A DNA stretch of 64,000 nucleotides, from NCBI GenBank assembly GCA_963812155.1, contig CAWETW010000003.1, positions 64,001-128,000 of the forward strand, in the 5' to 3' direction. The DNA comes from Vulcanimicrobiota bacterium. Its GTDB lineage: Bacteria > Vulcanimicrobiota > Vulcanimicrobiia > Vulcanimicrobiales > Vulcanimicrobiaceae. The notes below the pieces were generated by a model, which saw only the letters and a program-made list of their open reading frames with translations, searched no databases and was not told the DNA's origin. Positions 55,690 through 64,000 of the stretch are shown one piece after another. Numbering within the stretch: position 1 is the stretch's first letter; each line of letters starts with the position of its first letter. The translations under genes were made by a program, and so were the position numbers.

Positions 55690-56853
55690 TTAGTATATAA
55701 ACCCGTTGCGGACGGCGGGACGCGCAAACTTGAAGCCGCCGCCGCTGACGGTGTAGACGTAAATGTTCGGAATCAGCGGATCGCCGAATACGTTGAAGTT
55801 GTACTGGCCGACGAGCGTCGTAATCGTAGGGCTGCGCTGCATGGATGAGAGCAGCGAGACGCGCGTGTAGGCGGCGCTGCGGCGGGATGCGGAGATCAGC
55901 ACTTGCGCGGCGGCGTAGCCGTAGGCCGAGAAGGCCGTAATCGGACCGACTTCGCGTTGGAAGTCGGTCAGCAGCCCCACCGCGCTGGGGATACGCTCGA
56001 GCGGCGGAAGCGAGGATGCGACGTAGGCGCCGTCGAGCGTTTTGGAATACGTCGCCAGCGTGTCGCCGTTGTAGAAGCCGTCGCTGGCGCCGAAATCGCC
56101 GCGATAGCCGGCCAGCCGCAGCGCTTCGGCGAGCGGGCCGAGACCGGCCGTCGTTCCGCAGAGAAAAACATAGCCTGGGCTGTGTTGCAGCACCGTGCGC
56201 GCTGCCTGCGCCGGATCGAAGCCCTTGACCGGGAAAAGCAGTACGTCGGCATCGTGGCGTTCGGACTTCGCCTCCTGCACGAAGCCACGCGCCACGTCGT
56301 AGCCATAGTCGCCGTCGAGCGAGACGGCGAGCGCGGAGACGCCGCGCTTTTCCGGTAAGACCGTCGACGCGAACAGACGTCCCGAGGTGCTGTCCTTTGC
56401 CGGTAGGCGAAAGACGTTGTGATAGTTGCGATTCGTGACCGCGTCGGCGGTAACGGTCGGAACGACGAGCGCAAAGTTGACGTTAGCGTAGCGCGACAGC
56501 GCGGCGAGCGTCATGGGCGCGGTGAGGTTGCCGACGATGCCGATCACGGTGGAGTCGGCCGCGGCGACGCTGGCGTTGGTGGCCGCGAGTGCGACGTCGT
56601 TGCGATCGTCGTACGCGCGCATGCCCCAGACGCGCGAAATCGGTGCGGTAAACCGGTTCGTTTCGTCGACCGCGGCCTGCACGCCGCGCACGACCTCCGT
56701 GCCGTACTTCTCCAGCGGTCCCGAAAGCGTGACGTTGACGCCGATCGTGACCTGCTGCAGAAACGCCGGGTTGTTGTACTGCGCGCGCGCGGGCGCCGCG
56801 AGCGCGCTCGCGACGGCGCCGCCGGCTGCCGCGACGAACGCCGACCGCTTCAT
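55690..56853 (-). CDS. Branched-chain amino acid ABC substrate-binding (LivJ-like) protein
   Basis: Tat-like MKRSAFV signal, YDDRND, NVFRL, DYGYDVA, SAYGYAAAQV. Confidence 0.85.
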   Translation of the reverse strand: MKRSAFVAAAGGAVASALAAPARAQYNNPAFLQQVTIGVNVTLSGPLEKYGTEVVRGVQAAVDETNRFTAPISRVWGMRAYDDRNDVALAATNASVAAADSTVIGIVGNLTAPMTLAALSRYANVNFALVVPTVTADAVTNRNYHNVFRLPAKDSTSGRLFASTVLPEKRGVSALAVSLDGDYGYDVARGFVQEAKSERHDADVLLFPVKGFDPAQAARTVLQHSPGYVFLCGTTAGLGPLAEALRLAGYRGDFGASDGFYNGDTLATYSKTLDGAYVASSLPPLERIPSAVGLLTDFQREVGPITAFSAYGYAAAQVLISASRRSAAYTRVSLLSSMQRSPTITTLVGQYNFNVFGDPLIPNIYVYTVSGGGFKFARPAVRNGFIY

Positions 56854-57716
56854 GCCGGAGCTCCCGGCGCGTGCGCGTAGCTCGCAAAGGTCGTCGCAAG
56901 GAACACGACCGAAAACGTCATGTTGGCGATGAAGATGCGCTCGTTGAGCACGAAGACGTTTTCGGCGACGCGGAACGCGCGATCTTCGTAAACCACCAGC
57001 AGCGCGGCCGCGGCAACGCCGGCATAGTAGAGCGGCGCGGCGTGTGCGGCGGCGCCCGCCAGCGCGAGCAGCGCGGTCATCGCGACGTGGAGTGCGATCG
57101 GCAGCGTGCGGGCGCTGCGTTCGCCGAATCGCGCCGGAAGCGATCGGATGCCCTGCGCGCGATCGACGCGTAGATCCATCAGCGCGTAGACGATGTCGAA
57201 GCCGGCCACCCAGACGGTCACCGCCGCAAACAGCAGCAGCGCCGCCCAGCTCACGCGGCCTGCGATGCCGATGTAGGCGCCCAACGGAGCGAGTCCGTCG
57301 ACCGCCCCCAGCACGAAATGCGTGACCCAGGTGACGCGTTTGCAAAGCGGATAGAGCAGGACGCCGGCGCCGGCGATCGGCAGCAATCGAACGCAAAGCG
57401 GATTGAGCATCCACGCCGCCCACAGCAGCACCGCGAGTCCGGCAACGATTGCTGCGAGCATCGAAAGGGGCGAGAGCGTGCCGGCGGCAAGCGCGCGCCG
57501 CGCGGTGCGCGGATTGCGTGCGTCAATGTCGCGATCGAAATACCGGTTGGCGGCCATTGCCGCGGTGCGGGCACCCAAGACCGCGAGCGTGATCCAGCCG
57601 AGGGCCGGCAACGGCGGAAGACCGCGCGCGGCGATCAGCGCGCCGGCGTACGCGAACGGCAGCGCGAAGAGCGTGTGCTCGACGCGAATTTCCCGTAGGA
57701 AGAGCGCGGCTTTCAT
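56850..57716 (-). CDS. UbiA-family polyprenyltransferase (MqnP-like)
   Basis: EHTLFALPFAY, AMAANRYFDRDIDARNPRT, AGFDIVYALMD. Confidence 0.9.
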   Translation of the reverse strand: MKAALFLREIRVEHTLFALPFAYAGALIAARGLPPLPALGWITLAVLGARTAAMAANRYFDRDIDARNPRTARRALAAGTLSPLSMLAAIVAGLAVLLWAAWMLNPLCVRLLPIAGAGVLLYPLCKRVTWVTHFVLGAVDGLAPLGAYIGIAGRVSWAALLLFAAVTVWVAGFDIVYALMDLRVDRAQGIRSLPARFGERSARTLPIALHVAMTALLALAGAAAHAAPLYYAGVAAAALLVVYEDRAFRVAENVFVLNERIFIANMTFSVVFLATTFASYAHAPGAPA

Positions 57717-59242
57717 CACGGCGCGCCGTCCGGGCGTAAGAGCCGCGCGAGCGCCGGCGGTCCCTGCCCCGACCAATCGTCGGTGCGCAGCGCGCCGGCA
57801 AGGCCTTCGAGACCGTACTCGCGCCAACGTTTGCTCACGAGCGCGCGCACCTTCGCATCCATCACCATATCGGGCGGCCACTCGCGCGCGTACCCTTCGG
57901 CGGCATCCTTGCGGGTCGCATCGATGCCCATTTTGGTGCCGTAGGCGATGTCGTACGATCCGTGATCCAAATCGTCGACCGGTCCCGGCATCGTCACGAG
58001 GTCGCGATCCGGAGCGATATTGTTGAGCACGAACCAGGCGACGCTGCGCGTGTCCTGCACGTCGACGTCGGCGTCGACGACGATCAAGACGCGCGTCAAC
58101 ATCATCATGTGACCGAGTCCCCAAAGCGCGCTCATGACTTTTTTTGCATGGCCCGGATACGCTTTGCGGATCGAGACGATTGCGAGGTTGTGGAAGCCGC
58201 CTTCGACCGGCAGATTCATGTCGACCACTTCCGGCAGCACGAGTTGAAGCAGCGGCAGAAAGAGCCGTTCGGTCGCCTTCCCCAGCCACGCGTCCTCCAT
58301 CGGAGGTTTGCCGACCACCGTCGCCGCGTACACCGGGTCGCGCCGGTGCGTGATGCACGTGAGATGAAACGTCGGATAGCGGTCGGCGAGACTGTATACG
58401 CCGGTGTGATCGCCGAAGGGACCTTCGACGCGCAAGTCGCGATTGTCGACGTAGCCTTCGAGCACGAACTCCGCTTCCGCGGGAACGAGCAGATCGACGG
58501 TGCGAGCCGGCGTCAGTTCGACCGGCCGCCCGCGCAGCAAGCCGGCAAAAGCGAATTCGTCGAGCAGGGGCGGCAAGGGCGCCGTTGCGGCGTACGTCAG
58601 CACGGGTTCCGTTCCGATTGCAACCGCGACCGGCACCTTGTCGCCCCACGCGGCGGCGTGTGCGCGCCCTTGTTTGTGACGTTGCCAGTGCATGCCGGTT
58701 TCGCGTGCGTTGTACACCTGCATGCGATACATGCCGGCGTTGAAACGTCCGGTCTGCGGATGTTTGGTGATAACGAGCGGCAGCGTGATGAATGGGCCGG
58801 CATCGAGCGGCCACGTCGTAAGAATGGGCAGTTGGGTGAGATCCGGATTGCGCGTGACGACGTCGTGAACGGGAGCGTTGCGAACGATCTTCGGCGTCGC
58901 GTTTGCCAGCGGTGCGAGCCGCATCAAGGCGCCGATTTTTTCGCCCAGCGACGATCCGGGCGGCGCGATGTCGACGAGCCGCCGTATGCGCCCGGCGGCC
59001 TCGTCGAGATCGGCGGCATCGAGCGCCATCGCCATGCGTCGCCGCGTGCCGAACTGATTGGTGAGCACCGGGACCTTCGATCCGGCGGGGCGGGCGAACA
59101 GCAGCGCGGGTCCGCCGGCTTTGACCACGCGATCCGTGATCTCGGCAATCTCGAGATACGGATCGACGCGCGCTTGCACGGTGTGGAGTTCGCCGGCTTT
59201 GCGCAGCGCGCCGATGAAGTCGCGCAGGGACGAGAAGGGCAT
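57716..59242 (-). CDS. UbiD-family decarboxylase (MqnL-like, menaquinone biosynthesis)
   Basis: EGPFGDHTG, VVGKPPMED, YPGHAKKVM, KMGIDAT. Confidence 0.9.
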   Translation of the reverse strand: MPFSSLRDFIGALRKAGELHTVQARVDPYLEIAEITDRVVKAGGPALLFARPAGSKVPVLTNQFGTRRRMAMALDAADLDEAAGRIRRLVDIAPPGSSLGEKIGALMRLAPLANATPKIVRNAPVHDVVTRNPDLTQLPILTTWPLDAGPFITLPLVITKHPQTGRFNAGMYRMQVYNARETGMHWQRHKQGRAHAAAWGDKVPVAVAIGTEPVLTYAATAPLPPLLDEFAFAGLLRGRPVELTPARTVDLLVPAEAEFVLEGYVDNRDLRVEGPFGDHTGVYSLADRYPTFHLTCITHRRDPVYAATVVGKPPMEDAWLGKATERLFLPLLQLVLPEVVDMNLPVEGGFHNLAIVSIRKAYPGHAKKVMSALWGLGHMMMLTRVLIVVDADVDVQDTRSVAWFVLNNIAPDRDLVTMPGPVDDLDHGSYDIAYGTKMGIDATRKDAAEGYAREWPPDMVMDAKVRALVSKRWREYGLEGLAGALRTDDWSGQGPPALARLLRPDGAP

Positions 59243-59297: not shown

Positions 59298-60225
59298 TTA
59301 CGGCGTGGGCTCGTGCTCCGGAATGGATGCGACGAAGCGCGCACCTCCGCCGTTGGATGCCGTCAACCGCGACCGACCCGGCATGCGCCTGCGCGATCCA
59401 GCGGACGATTGCCAAGCCGAGGCCGGTTCCCGCGCCGTCATCGGATCGGCGGTAGAATCGTTCGAAGATGCGCTCCCGGTCGGCCGGCGGAATGCCGGCA
59501 CCGTCGTCCTCGACGACGATTTCGCAGCATCGCCCGTTGCGTTGCGATGCAATGATCACCGACGTGCGCGCATGGCGCACGGCGTTGTCGAGCAGATTGC
59601 GTGCGAGTTCGCGCAACCGCCGTTCGTCGCCGTCGACGATGGCGCTGACGGCGAGACTCTCGATGCGAACGCCGCGCTCGCGCGCGGACGAAGCGACGTC
59701 GCGCGCGCTGCGCGTTACGACGGCCGCCAGATCGACGGGTTCGCATTGCAGCACGCCTTGGCGCGGCTGGCGGGCCAGCGTCAGCAGGTCGCCGACGATC
59801 GCAGACGCCTCGAGCGCTTGCGCGGCAATCTCTTCGAAGGCGGCGCGCATTTCGGCGGGTTCGGCGCTGCCGGCCGCCTGCGCGACGCTGGCGATTGCCG
59901 CCAGCGGCGAACGCAGTTCGTGTGCCACGTCCGAAGCGAAGACGCGCTCGCGTTCGCGCGCCGCAAAGATCGGCGCGAGCGTCGCACGCGCGAGCGCGTA
60001 GGAGGCCGCGCCGACAGCGATGACGAGCGGCACGTCGAGCAACAGGATCGTGACCAGCACGCGCCGCATCGCGGTCGCCATGGCGGCGTGGCCTTCGGGC
60101 GTGTCCAGCGCCGGCTGCAGCAGCGACGCGTATTCCCGCATCACGAACGCGAACGCACCCGCGTCGAGAACCGCGAGGACGCAAATGAAAATGAGGAGAT
60201 AGAGAGCGGAAGTGCGCGCGATCAA
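59298..60225 (-). CDS. Sensor histidine kinase (one apparent frameshift near 59362)
   Basis: DVAHELRSPL, NLLDNAVRH, EDDGAGI, GTGLGLAI; removing one G gives VDASNGGGARF...* at 59298. Confidence 0.9.
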
Positions 60226-60890
60226 TTGCGCAAGCGGTACCCGACGCCCCAGACCGTCTCGATGAAGCCTTCGTCGCCGAGCTTGCGCAGCTTACGGCGG
60301 AGCTGGCTCACGTACACGTCGACGATATTGCTGGAACCCTCGAAGTCATAGTCCCAGACACGCTCGAGAATCTGCGCGCGCGAGAGCGCGATGCCGGCGT
60401 TCCGCGCCAGCAGTTCGAGCAGCCGGAATTCGGTGGCGCCGAGATCGAGTGCCTTGCCGTCGTAGGATGCGTTGCGTCCGCCGACGTCCACGCGCAGTTT
60501 TCCGACCTCGATCGACGAAACGACCGGACGGTCGCCGCGGCGCAGCAGCGCGCGCAGGCGAGCGATGAGTTCGTTCTCGACGAACGGCTTTACCAGGTAA
60601 TCGTCGGCGCCGCAGTCGAGTCCGGCGACGCGATCTTCGACCGCGTCGCGCGCGGTGAGCATCAGAATGGGCGTGCGCACGCCTTCGGCACGCGCGCCGC
60701 GCGCTACCGCGAACCCGTCGATGCCCGGAAGGCCGACGTCCACGATTGCGGCATCGTAGTTCTCGCCGACGAGGCGGTCCAATCCGGTGCGTCCGTCGGT
60801 CACGATGCTGGCGGCGAACTTCTGAGCTTCGAGCATCGAGCGCACGGCGCGCGCGATCGGGAGGTTATCTTCAACGACCAAGATTCGCAT
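60222..60890 (-). CDS. OmpR/CusR-family response regulator
   Basis: RILVVED, DVGLPGIDG, GADDYLVKPF, SNIVDVYVSQLRRKL, TVWGVGY. Confidence 0.95.
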   Translation of the reverse strand: MRILVVEDNLPIARAVRSMLEAQKFAASIVTDGRTGLDRLVGENYDAAIVDVGLPGIDGFAVARGARAEGVRTPILMLTARDAVEDRVAGLDCGADDYLVKPFVENELIARLRALLRRGDRPVVSSIEVGKLRVDVGGRNASYDGKALDLGATEFRLLELLARNAGIALSRAQILERVWDYDFEGSSNIVDVYVSQLRRKLRKLGDEGFIETVWGVGYRLRN

Positions 60891-60897
60891 GCTTCAC

Positions 60898-62052
60898 CTA
60901 ATACTTCCACGGGCCGGGGAAAGCTACTGTTACGGCGCCTCCGAGGGTGGGATGCTGATCGGGAGCGCCGATCGGGGCGACCTCCTGAAGCAGGAACCTA
61001 AACGGTGCGATCATCACGGCACCGTAGTAGACGAAATCGCGGGTGACGATCGGGTTCGCCTGCGCATCGTACCGAACGCCGAGATACGCGTGCGGAATGG
61101 GATAGACTTTGAAGCGCACGTAACCTCCGCTCGACGCTTGCCTCGTCCCGAAGCCGTCGGCGTTGCTGTCGTTGCCCCACCACTGCTCGGCTTGAAGATC
61201 GACCGGTCCGAGGGTCGCGTGCCCGAGCAATCCATACCGCGAGTACGTGTCGTTGAAAGCGGTGCTTCCGGTCGGCAAGATGTGTCGCACGCCTTCAAGC
61301 GCCTCACCGCCGCCGTCTAACTCGATGCTCCCCTTGGAAAAGAGGCCTTGATTGAGCCAGACGCCGACTTCCGGCGTCGAAACGTAGGTCGTCAAGCCCG
61401 TGTTCACCGGCTTGCCCCCGTAGGGCGCGCCCTGAAAGTCGCCGACGGCGAACGTCAGATTGGCGACGAGATTTCCAATCGTTCGCTGATCCCACACGCC
61501 CCATCGCGGCGACGACAACGGCAAATCGTTGAGTCCGACGTGCGCGCCGTAGTACCCGTACTGTTGCAGGTCGTCGAGGCGCTCGCCCGGCGACTGCGCG
61601 AGCGGCAGTTCGAACAACCCGAGCCGATATTCGGATTTCGTATGTGCATTGTAGTCGGTGAGAAATCCGAGATAGAGCGCGCTCGGACCGCCGCCCGCAC
61701 CGAGGCTGTAGTGCATGTAGAGCGAAATGTTGCCGACGTCGGTATTACCCAGCAAGATGCCGCCGGGCGTCCAACGCCGGGTTCCGGCAGCGGGATCCTG
61801 CGCGTACGACATTTGATAGCGAATCGCGAACATCGTCGTGCCGTGCTTTTCGATGGGAAGCCGGTACCCGTGCATGCGGAAGTAGTTGCCGAATCCGTTG
61901 AGCTCCGGCAAGACGCTGTGGCAGGCACCGCAGTGCAGCCGATAGCGCTGAGCGAAGACCGGAATCGCGCGAGCGGGCGCGGAGCAGAGGGCCGAAAACA
62001 ATATCGCCGCGACGAGCGCGGCGATCGCGAGGCGCGATTCTCTATTGTGCAA
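60898..62052 (-). CDS. Cyc2-like monoheme cytochrome c/outer-membrane beta-barrel fusion
   Basis: Signal peptide, then AIPVFAQRYRLHCGACHSVLPELNGFGNYFRMHGY, then Gly/aromatic-rich beta strands ending in Tyr; start uncertain (62052 or 62076). Confidence 0.72.
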   Translation of the reverse strand: MHNRESRLAIAALVAAILFSALCSAPARAIPVFAQRYRLHCGACHSVLPELNGFGNYFRMHGYRLPIEKHGTTMFAIRYQMSYAQDPAAGTRRWTPGGILLGNTDVGNISLYMHYSLGAGGGPSALYLGFLTDYNAHTKSEYRLGLFELPLAQSPGERLDDLQQYGYYGAHVGLNDLPLSSPRWGVWDQRTIGNLVANLTFAVGDFQGAPYGGKPVNTGLTTYVSTPEVGVWLNQGLFSKGSIELDGGGEALEGVRHILPTGSTAFNDTYSRYGLLGHATLGPVDLQAEQWWGNDSNADGFGTRQASSGGYVRFKVYPIPHAYLGVRYDAQANPIVTRDFVYYGAVMIAPFRFLLQEVAPIGAPDQHPTLGGAVTVAFPGPWKY

Positions 62053-62530
62053 CGATGGCTCCTCGCATGGGTGCACCGTAGTGGTAGAAGCAGCCGTAGA
62101 GATAGGTGCCGGGCTTATCGACCTTGACCGTTTGCGATGACTCCCCCGCCTGCATCGCGCCGCTGGTCCAGCCGCCCGACAGTGTCGTTCCGGTCTGGTT
62201 CAAAGCCTTACCGCTAAACGGGTAGGCGTTCGGGAATTGCGTCTCGTTTTTACTTTGCCCCGGCGTAATCGATGTGGAAGTATGAGCGAATCCGTCGCTG
62301 TTCATGAACGTCACCGTGTCGTCGACCTTGACGTCCAGGACGGGCGGCTTCATGCCGCCGCTTTGGCCGTAGGGCGTTTGAACCGGAGCGTTCAGCGTAA
62401 GGTTGACGTCGACCACGTGATTGACGCCGGAAGAGCCGCCGCCGCCTCCGCCCGAGACGCCGATGCCGTTGGGCGTGCAGCCCGCGGCCAGCACGGCTGC
62501 GACGAACGTTGCGAGCAACGTGCGCGTCAT
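62042..62530 (-). CDS. Cupredoxin (type-1 blue copper) lipoprotein
   Basis: LAAGC lipobox, AHT, YGCFYHYGAPMRG. Confidence 0.88.
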   Translation of the reverse strand: MTRTLLATFVAAVLAAGCTPNGIGVSGGGGGGSSGVNHVVDVNLTLNAPVQTPYGQSGGMKPPVLDVKVDDTVTFMNSDGFAHTSTSITPGQSKNETQFPNAYPFSGKALNQTGTTLSGGWTSGAMQAGESSQTVKVDKPGTYLYGCFYHYGAPMRGAIVAQ

Positions 62531-63093
62531 CGGCCCACTCTGTGCGGCGTCATCGCGTGCGCTTCGGCGAGAATATCGCTTGTGAGATTGTTGGATGCCA
62601 GCAGCGTTTTCGTCAGCGTGCCGCGCGCGTCGAAGACGTAGACGAACGTCGTGTGCGCTTCGCGATAACCGCTCTTCCCCGGTTTGGCGATCACGCCGAA
62701 CGCGTTGAGAACGTCGTTGACGTCGGGGCTATGCCCGCTGGCGACCAACCAATAGCGAGAATTTGCGGAGAAGCGTTGCGCCAACGCCCGCATGACGCTC
62801 GGCGGGTCGTGCTGCGGATCGAGCGTGATCGTTAACAGTCGCGTCGAGAGCGCCTGGTGCGCGATCTCCGACGCGGCTTGTGAGAACTCCGCGTTGACCA
62901 ACGGACACGCATCGCTGCAATGCGCCGACACGAACGTCACGATAAGCGGGCGCCCTTCGAGCGAGCGCAGCGTGAACGTCCTTCCGGTCTGGTCGACCAG
63001 TTGCGGCGTCGCCGGCGGCGCCGGCGCTGCCGTCGCCGGAGCGACGTGCAGCGCGGCAATAAACGCCAGCATTCCTAGGAGCATGGGACGCAT
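62527..63093 (-). CDS. SCO1/SenC copper chaperone
   Basis: LVDQTG, CSDAC (CxxxC), ITLDPQHD, AHTTFVYVFD. Confidence 0.92.
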   Translation of the reverse strand: MRPMLLGMLAFIAALHVAPATAAPAPPATPQLVDQTGRTFTLRSLEGRPLIVTFVSAHCSDACPLVNAEFSQAASEIAHQALSTRLLTITLDPQHDPPSVMRALAQRFSANSRYWLVASGHSPDVNDVLNAFGVIAKPGKSGYREAHTTFVYVFDARGTLTKTLLASNNLTSDILAEAHAMTPHRVGR

Positions 63094-63665
63094 CAGCGGA
63101 CGAACGTCGGCCCCGGCGTGGCCTTGGCGGCAACGCGGATGACGTCTTGCATTCCTTCGTGATAATGGAAGGCGCATCCGATGAGGTACGTTCCCTTATC
63201 CGAAAGCGTCACCGTCACCGATTTTCCGGGACCGATGGATCCGCTGGCGTAGCCGAGACCGAGGATCCCATTACCCATCGGCTGAGTCGAGAGCGTCGGA
63301 TTCTTCGGGAAATTCGCCGGCGGATGCTTCCGCTTGGCTACGACGTTGAGCGTATGCGAGTAGAGTTTGGAGAGGTTCTTGATCGTTACTACCGTGCCGG
63401 GTGGAAACGCGAGCACTTGCGCCGTCGTCGATTGCGTGAAACCGCCGACGAGTCCCCACGACGGGTCTTGCTTCGTCTTGACGCCTTCACTGGGCAGTTC
63501 TTCGCCGATCGTTTTGGCCGGCAGCGTGAAATGCAGTTCGGTTTGCGGGCCGAGCGATTGTACGAACGATGTTGCGGGAGTAGCGTTCGACGGCATGTTG
63601 CCGCCGCCGCACGCCGCCAGGGCGCACGCGATGACCGCCAACGCGGCGCCACCGGATTTTGTCAT
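63093..63665 (-). CDS. Cupredoxin lipoprotein
   Basis: LAAC lipobox, SHTLNV, IGCAFHYHEGMQD; GAGGAG RBS. Confidence 0.88.
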   Translation of the reverse strand: MTKSGGAALAVIACALAACGGGNMPSNATPATSFVQSLGPQTELHFTLPAKTIGEELPSEGVKTKQDPSWGLVGGFTQSTTAQVLAFPPGTVVTIKNLSKLYSHTLNVVAKRKHPPANFPKNPTLSTQPMGNGILGLGYASGSIGPGKSVTVTLSDKGTYLIGCAFHYHEGMQDVIRVAAKATPGPTFVR

Positions 63666-63751
63666 AGGATGATTCTCCTCGAGTAGTGAGGGTGCGTGAT
63701 TGAGCGACGGTAGCAAGCGTTCGTGAAGAAAGTCTAAACCGAGTACGCGTT

Positions 63752-64000
63752 TTAGTAACTGTAGCCGGTCGGATAACCGCTCGGGCTCGGTCCGGTCGAA
63801 GGCGTTGCCGTTCCCTTGGGCGGCGGCGACGCTTCTTTTCCTGGAACGGCACCTTTCTTCACGACGAGCACGTCCTTCATGCCCTCGGAGTAGTGGAACG
63901 CACAGCCGATCAGGTACGTGCCGGCGTCCTTGAGCGTAATCGTCACCGAATGGCCGGGTTGTATCACGCCGCTGCGATAACCGGTGCCCATGATGCCCTT
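63752..64000 (-). CDS. Cupredoxin paralogue (5' end outside window) with Pro/Ser/Thr tail
   Basis: GTYLIGCAFHYSEGMKDVLVV, similar to the 63093-63665 protein. Confidence 0.85.
   Translation of the reverse strand, partial: KGIMGTGYRSGVIQPGHSVTITLKDAGTYLIGCAFHYSEGMKDVLVVKKGAVPGKEASPPPKGTATPSTGPSPSGYPTGYSY

Follow-up and report, generated by a model that had tools for sequence, protein, structure and literature searches.

What does a soil bacterium gain from a cytochrome-porin that is encoded together with three blue-copper proteins, a copper chaperone and a two-component system? The question is raised by a 64,000-nucleotide stretch from a Vulcanimicrobiota bacterium (NCBI GenBank assembly GCA_963812155.1, contig CAWETW010000003.1, positions 64,001 to 128,000; G000:C3:64001-128000 in our numbering), the whole of which we call the window. 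The genome measures 2.96 Mb and is 84 % complete. A reading of the bare sequence, hereafter the original prediction, had described a minus-strand run of cupredoxin, cupredoxin, SCO, cupredoxin, CxxCH/beta-barrel protein, response regulator and kinase. All seven genes are present in that order (Table 1). From cupredoxin 2 down to the kinase the successive intergenic gaps measure −1, −4, −11, +7 and −4 nt, which bears out the tight packing described from 63665. We find that this operon is a real conserved module and that it probably encodes an electron conduit. The narrower reading, an outer-membrane electron-uptake conduit with Fe(II) as donor and inward flow, we believe about as much as we doubt it.

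The porin resembles Cyc2 of A. ferrooxidans, Cyc2PV-1 of Mariprofundus and Cyt572 of Leptospirillum in having a signal peptide (called by eye), a single N-terminal CxxCH and a predicted 16-strand, OprO/OprP-like barrel, and its CxxCH keeps the spacing to the upstream A-x-P-x-F-A and the downstream PxL. The N-terminus AIPVFAQRY..CGACH had been quoted exactly. A loose pattern of the motif matched 2 of the 27,186 stop-to-stop open reading frames (ORFs) of the genome, both of them Cyc2-like genes, and C41, C44 and H45 are invariant in 80/80 and 41/41 aligned homologues; the motif is therefore above chance. From the Cyc2 signature attributed to the porin, the CxxCH part stands and the strict FAR part falls, the protein reading F-A-Q-R-Y. 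Residues at this site are QRY in all 80 rows of one set, and QRY in 31 and ERY in 7 of the 41 rows of the other. The terminal Tyr seems to resemble that of Cyt572 (YPGFARKY), and two of six proteobacterial homologues also depart from the strict motif (FAAQT). Compared with six unvalidated plasmid homologues, the heme domain gave an hhalign probability of 97.3 % (E 1.8e-11, 57 columns) with motif spacing and PxL kept, and hmmsearch of heme-domain homologues returned 39-45 bits. No significant Pfam or NCBIfam match was found for the porin. The naming as a Cyc2-like cytochrome-porin is upheld by the predicted barrel together with this heme-domain homology to Cyc2 homologues of canonical motif. 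The host has a BamA gene and a CcsA cytochrome maturation gene, and the phylum's cultured member is Gram-negative and aerobic and has an outer membrane according to the accessible text of PMC9758169. Cyc2-like genes also occur on A. ferrooxidans and Acidiphilium plasmids (CP084173.1, our L149; NC_009469.1; NC_015179.1), the first two with equal score and identity to the query, suggesting plasmid spread.

How firmly is the porin tied to its copper partners? A porin match is found in 237 of 301 phylum genomes and an orthologue (E 1e-40 or better) in 164, all of which fall within one class of 243 genomes (two thirds). Cupredoxin 3 is present in 162 of the 164; among the other 137 genomes 13 have a match, one of them strong. 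Six of the genomes counted are marked unpublished (G036, G235, G239, G246, G248, G263), and kin are not independent. The cupredoxin 3 gene lies directly upstream of the porin in 40/40 loci chosen across genera in three families (38 called directly, two poorly called or frameshifted ones through tblastn) and in 77/78 named loci, confirming the linkage expected in relatives. SCO, tetratricopeptide (TPR) and two-component genes are common in the family of this genome and missing from the seven loci of family f3; SCO is missing from loci of two outer families, and the kinase stands in 30/40 relatives' loci. Porin and cupredoxin 3 are the conserved core of the module. The closest homologues carry the names Ca. 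Baltobacteraceae, Eremiobacteraeota and Cybelea, and the nearest named loci, Ca. Tumulicola among them, are 83-96 % identical.

When porin, heme and cupredoxin 3 were modelled together, the predicted complex scored 0.52 against 0.01 for the best control, by a mark that 116/157 solved and 2/215 mismatched pairs reached; at 0.60 or under it was reached by 18 of the 157 solved pairs and by both mismatches. Three runs gave 0.52, 0.61 and 0.01, with contact agreement of at least 19 % and partner pLDDT of at least 79. The models point weakly to docking of cupredoxin 3 on the porin.

Each of the three cupredoxins has a lipobox, a flexible tether and the type-1 copper ligands H...C-x2-H-x4-M; by ligands and fold we class them as type-1 (blue) cupredoxins, and the description as lipid-anchored proteins tightly linked to the porin holds. 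Cupredoxin 1 is a 217-aa lipoprotein (lipobox LAAC) with ligands H, C, H and M invariant in 24 rows, and cupredoxin 2 is its paralogue (53 % identical). The tether of cupredoxin 3 is Gly-rich, and its lipid Cys and H, C, H and M ligands are invariant in 38 rows. With a PF00127 cut-off of 21.2 bits, cupredoxin 3 scores over it (27.8) and the other two just under (19.9 and 20.7). Profile matches in the PDB are plastocyanins, pseudoazurins, amicyanin and auracyanins; rusticyanin was matched by neither of the two cupredoxin profiles, and its C-x4-H-x4-M loop (C138-H143-M148 in the part of the source available) is absent. The analogy to rusticyanin thus survives for the role and fails for the loop and for the nearest solved relatives, which are plastocyanin, pseudoazurin and auracyanin. 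The SCO protein has a CxxxC (CSDAC) with His and a signal peptide, and passes the SCO1/SenC family cut-off of 22.8 bits. Its gene is found in 68/73 loci with enough upstream DNA, and in 53 of these 73 named loci cupredoxin 2 and SCO share one reading frame, which ties SCO to the operon cupredoxins. The fusions are mostly from Cybelea where a genus is labelled, and all six inspected are continuous. SCO presumably loads the cupredoxins with copper. A tandem double cupredoxin 3 occurs in ten loci (L081, L084-L086, L092, L093, L096, L102, L113, L116); some may be frameshift splits, and several genomes show two full copies.

What other partners does the porin family have? Two paralogues are found in the genome. 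One is flanked by a CuA-type cupredoxin and a triheme cytochrome c, and the other precedes YceI, a lipid/quinone-binding family. Across 22 paralogue loci, a multicopper oxidase stands within two genes in 6, YceI in 4 and a COX2-COX1 pair in 3 (2 on the same strand); for several, no redox gene lies within three genes. Seventeen family proteins chosen for unusual length were scanned; five have C-terminal cytochrome c domains, one a cupredoxin and two an N-terminal chemoreceptor domain. A c-type cytochrome lies near the porin homologue in 6/6 annotated proteobacterial loci, one of them also with a high-potential iron-sulfur protein (HiPIP). What recurs beside members of the family is either a carrier of electrons or an enzyme that reduces oxygen. 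This speaks more for a conduit than for copper handling, and the originally proposed electron-conduit role gains support from these carrier neighbours and fusions.

The second paralogue (L022:9248-12024; G000:C3:717247-720023) shares an operon with the CuA-type cupredoxin, which is soluble, and the triheme cytochrome c. An ECF sigma/anti-sigma pair, a metallophosphoesterase and another cupredoxin are encoded nearby. In family f3 it lies beside COX2 and COX1 (L163:2402-6172, L164:4991-8759, L161:2676-6527), with a small subunit II that is ba3-like by eye. Paralogues next to multicopper oxidases are those of L154, L156, L157, L160 (where the oxidases are lipoprotein-like), L169 and L170. The third paralogue subfamily, L023:8671-10343 with L153, L158 and L167, is paired with YceI and not with a metal carrier. 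Two proteins of 1035-1043 aa, P0255 and P0258, have HAMP and MCP signal domains, followed in the same frame by an internal stretch resembling a signal sequence and then a complete Cyc2-like porin; they are possibly polyproteins cut by signal peptidase, or genes that have lost stop codons.

The regulation of the operon would extend the set of carriers. At its head we find TTCA-N7-YTYA(G/C), then, after 9-10 nt, TAnnnT, with a start codon almost immediately behind it. The pattern was matched in 25/30 relatives' loci examined, and in family f3 it stands immediately ahead of cupredoxin 3. Tandem repeats of 11 bp at such a promoter place are typical of OmpR-family sites, and we infer that the operon's regulator binds the TTCA-N7-YTYAG box. 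A matrix trained on relatives ranks the operon itself first in the genome (38.3) and a HiPIP gene on contig C4 second (24.6). Sites scoring at least 21 number 3 versus 0, 0 and 0 in shuffles, and sites scoring at least 18 number 9 versus 1, 0 and 3. The HiPIP is of Tat type (L171:3498-3770; G000:C4:122497-122772), passes PF01355, matches PioC and has matches in 15/15 genomes of the genus. The strict box precedes its orthologue in 9/10 loci, this genome counted, and is found in 9/18 HiPIP rows examined, the other misses being the second paralogue and a copy beside the porin-cupredoxin pair. A HiPIP gene stands directly before cupredoxin 3 in 4/121 loci (some genomes are twice in the set). Among the remaining sites most lie before secreted proteins, one is inside a gene and one has no close ORF behind it. 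The proteins behind box sites at L172, L173, L174, L175 and L176 are secreted, mostly lipoproteins, one with a PQQ-type beta-propeller and four without a Pfam match.

Two rival explanations give the operon another task. The first is metal acquisition or copper tolerance, in which Cu or Fe at the cell surface would be oxidised or reduced by the pore and the copper proteins so that it can be imported or detoxified, while SCO and the cupredoxins would serve as copper buffers. Already named as the alternative in the original prediction, it has lost ground and we consider it unlikely. It would explain four copper proteins in one operon and the divergent barrel-like protein of TonB-receptor size in 28/41 loci. 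The regulator and kinase do score among heavy-metal subfamilies, but far below the CusRS/CopRS cut-offs (TIGR01387, 192 < 279 bits; TIGR01386, 127 < 293 bits), and no NCBIfam cut-off is reached by the response regulator among the best 25 of 94 families. The kinase has two membrane helices and an outside loop of ~25 aa without conserved His, Met or Cys in 29 aligned kinases, and no metal-binding sensor loop. CopC, a CopD-like/cytochrome c gene and two further SCO-like genes lie apart from the operon on another contig (G000:C1:786265-795411), outside the 10 best box sites. No metal pump or efflux system is seen by eye among the listed recurring neighbour clusters (c0-c42). The core of the module is porin and cupredoxin 3, with SCO dispensed with in the two outer families, and HiPIP is no copper protein.

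The second rival is redox sensing, where the porin-cupredoxin pair would signal the outside redox state to a kinase controlling surface lipoproteins, with minor energy gain. A kinase nearly without a sensing domain of its own that accompanies the pair in 30/40 loci would suit this, as would box sites before secreted lipoproteins and the distant paralogues P0255 and P0258 in frame behind chemoreceptor signalling domains. However, the pair does without two-component genes in 7/7 family f3 loci, there are paralogues linked to cytochromes c and to terminal oxidases, and co-regulation of HiPIP suits bulk electron flow. We regard sensing as the least probable of the alternatives considered here.

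Where would the electrons of a conduit go? The genome has a single heme-copper oxidase, whose subunit II carries a fused cytochrome c, as well as a Rieske-b-c complex and a bd oxidase. Blue-copper and HiPIP centres are usually of high potential, which fits electron flow toward O2. Neither RuBisCO nor NiFe hydrogenase was found in the genome, and RuBisCO is present in 0/11 congeners, making autotrophic iron oxidation unlikely in this genus. It is found in 62/260 class genomes (34 full-length) and in 3/69 of the largest genus, and full-length in 14 of the 164 orthologue genomes, counting those that the RuBisCO tally also covers; G334 and G235 in this tally are among the genomes marked unpublished. 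We hypothesize that a donor, most likely dissolved Fe(II), enters the pore and reduces the porin heme, from which cupredoxin 3 on its flexible tether would take the electron. Cupredoxins 1 and 2 and the co-regulated HiPIP may then relay electrons over the periplasm to the caa3 oxidase (CuA with fused cytochrome c) and on to O2. SCO would supply the cupredoxins with copper, and kinase and regulator would activate the unit by way of the TTCA-N7-YTYAG box. In this genus a heterotroph would gain additional energy, or iron handling, and not autotrophic growth.

In organic soil the same inward conduit may serve another donor, be it Mn(II), Cu(I), a mineral surface, or humic quinones or phenolics in reduced form. 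The class-wide spread, mostly in genomes without RuBisCO, speaks for this, as do the divergence of motif and barrel from Cyc2, the several paralogues per genome with differing partners (multicopper oxidases in 6/22 loci) and the origin of all listed matching sequencing runs in soil metagenomes. On the other hand, the Cyc2-type proteins tested in the portions of literature consulted all oxidised Fe(II), and the available part of PMC13594681 reports Baltobacteraceae, predicted iron oxidisers, at up to 89 % of some mine-tailings samples. The invariant acidic residues E228, D268, D295 and D329 would also suit a cation, their placement in the barrel being hypothetical. Taken together, we judge a donor other than Fe(II) to be rather improbable, if less so than a role in metal handling.

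Several observations count against an iron-fed Cyc2-type conduit. The strict AXPXFAR[Q/K][T/Y] motif of Keffer et al. is found in 0/80 and 0/41 rows, FAQRY/FAERY standing in place of FAR[QK][TY], and the protein is shorter than the known Cyc2 proteins (439-570 aa). The expected barrel with a heme plug came out in part, as the AlphaFold2 model has the barrel and leaves the heme region below pLDDT 50. By sequence the barrel cannot be aligned with proteobacterial Cyc2 (probability 0.2, against 0.1-0.2 for a control barrel). In a quick tree that took in no validated Cyc2 sequence, the Eremiobacterota proteins form a clade apart from all strict-motif sequences (SH-aLRT 96). One complex run in three scored 0.01. 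One paralogue subfamily sits beside YceI (4/22 loci) and others have no nearby redox gene, while most of the nine box sites scoring at least 18, besides operon and HiPIP, precede secreted proteins of unknown role. The porin gene, present in 164 of the 243 genomes from a class of soil bacteria, is distributed without regard to carbon fixation. Finally, Keffer et al. note that distant Cyc2 homologues are unverified and found in Burkholderia, Ralstonia and Xanthomonas, and Fe(II) oxidation by such homologues in organisms not known as iron oxidisers is posed as an open question (10.1101/228056, section 13).

Among known systems, the Acidithiobacillus rus operon (cyc2-cyc1-cup/acoP-coxBACD-rus) likewise joins Cyc2 with blue-copper carriers toward an aa3-type oxidase, as far as the available text of PMC10654088 goes. 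Here, in contrast, three lipoprotein cupredoxins (C-x2-H-x4-M), SCO, TPR and a two-component system are found, without cytochrome c4 or oxidase in the operon and in a genus without detectable RuBisCO. PioABC of Rhodopseudomonas and the HiPIP-cyc2-cytochrome c loci of Burkholderiaceae also combine an outer-membrane conduit with a HiPIP carrier; the porin here is a monoheme fusion, whereas PioABC places decaheme PioA in PioB, and the constant partner here is a cupredoxin, with HiPIP usually elsewhere under the shared box. The belief that the lineage was not known for Cyc2 has to be given up, as Cyc2-like genes in Eremiobacterota are reported in the consulted part of PMC8357290 (MAG 15). In the parts available, PMC8357290 and PMC13594681 deal with this phylum, and with the family whose name the close homologues bear, and give gene presence; paralogues, cupredoxin pairing, SCO fusion, box and HiPIP link are added here. 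Operon, box and fusion are not described in the literature as searched by title and the start of abstracts, mostly outside subscription papers and supplements. Cyc2 goes unmentioned in the main text of PMC9758169 as far as available, and we also drew on parts of PMC7029218, PMC13741234 and PMC13647500.

The locus offers a defined test set: besides the porin and its partner (162/164 genomes) there are a chaperone, HiPIP as second carrier and a candidate box for the regulator. We suggest, with more doubt than belief, that most aerobic soil Eremiobacteria are unrecognised lithoheterotrophs that draw electrons from Fe(II) or from reduced material in the soil by way of a Cyc2 branch peculiar to their lineage, with a tethered blue-copper chain and HiPIP in one two-component regulon. 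The paralogues would then be a modular surface-redox toolkit that the strict motif misses, its pores partnered by cytochromes c, CuA, multicopper oxidases, heme-copper oxidases and chemoreceptors. If true, a widespread soil lineage adds to iron or organic-matter redox cycling and has been missed by a strict motif filter.

Table 1. Genes and promoter box of the operon; positions are those of the window, or of contig C3 where so marked
Feature	Position	Strand	Remarks
Cupredoxin 1	63752-64405 (C3:127752-128405), 63752..64000 in window	-	start 405 nt past window end; PF00127 20.7 bits
Cupredoxin 2	63093..63665	-	190-aa lipoprotein
SCO1/SenC copper chaperone	62527..63093	-	PF02630 75.3 bits
Cupredoxin 3	62042..62530	-	162-aa lipoprotein; PF00127 27.8 bits
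Cyc2-like monoheme cytochrome-porin	60898..62052	-	384 aa; TTG start, 11-nt overlap with cupredoxin 3
OmpR-family response regulator	60222..60890	-	PF00072 and PF00486
Sensor kinase	59298..60225	-	about 308 aa; PF00512 and PF02518
Secreted TPR protein	C3:128457-129263, outside window, upstream of cupredoxin 1	-	in 30/41 loci
85-aa secreted protein	C3:129273-129530, outside window	-	in 22/41 loci
Operon promoter box	C3:129539-129571, outside window	-	TTCA-N7-YTYAG

In this assembly the kinase gene contains one extra base near 59363. The base is missing from the contig of the best-matching sequencing run, possibly the source sample itself, and appears as a clean one-base gap in 5/6 relatives' alignments shown; it is therefore most likely an assembly error, and the end of the kinase at 59298 had been placed correctly. 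Beyond 64000, where a search for heme-copper oxidase or cytochrome genes had been proposed, there are none; the TPR protein, the 85-aa secreted protein and a divergent barrel-like gene are found instead, followed by pnp. The 85-aa protein, which has a single conserved Cys and matches no Pfam family, has the box, a −10 element and an apparently leaderless start (L001:9274-9572; C3:129273-129571, minus strand), and the secreted TPR protein comes next. The divergent gene (L001:9566-11407, plus strand) encodes an outer-membrane-like 613-aa protein with a carboxypeptidase-regulatory domain, and its called start touches the promoter box. On the other side, 55 nt past the kinase, a menaquinone-pathway decarboxylase (TIGR03701, over cut-off) and a UbiA gene occupy 56850-59242 of the window on the minus strand, an arrangement found in 14/41 loci.

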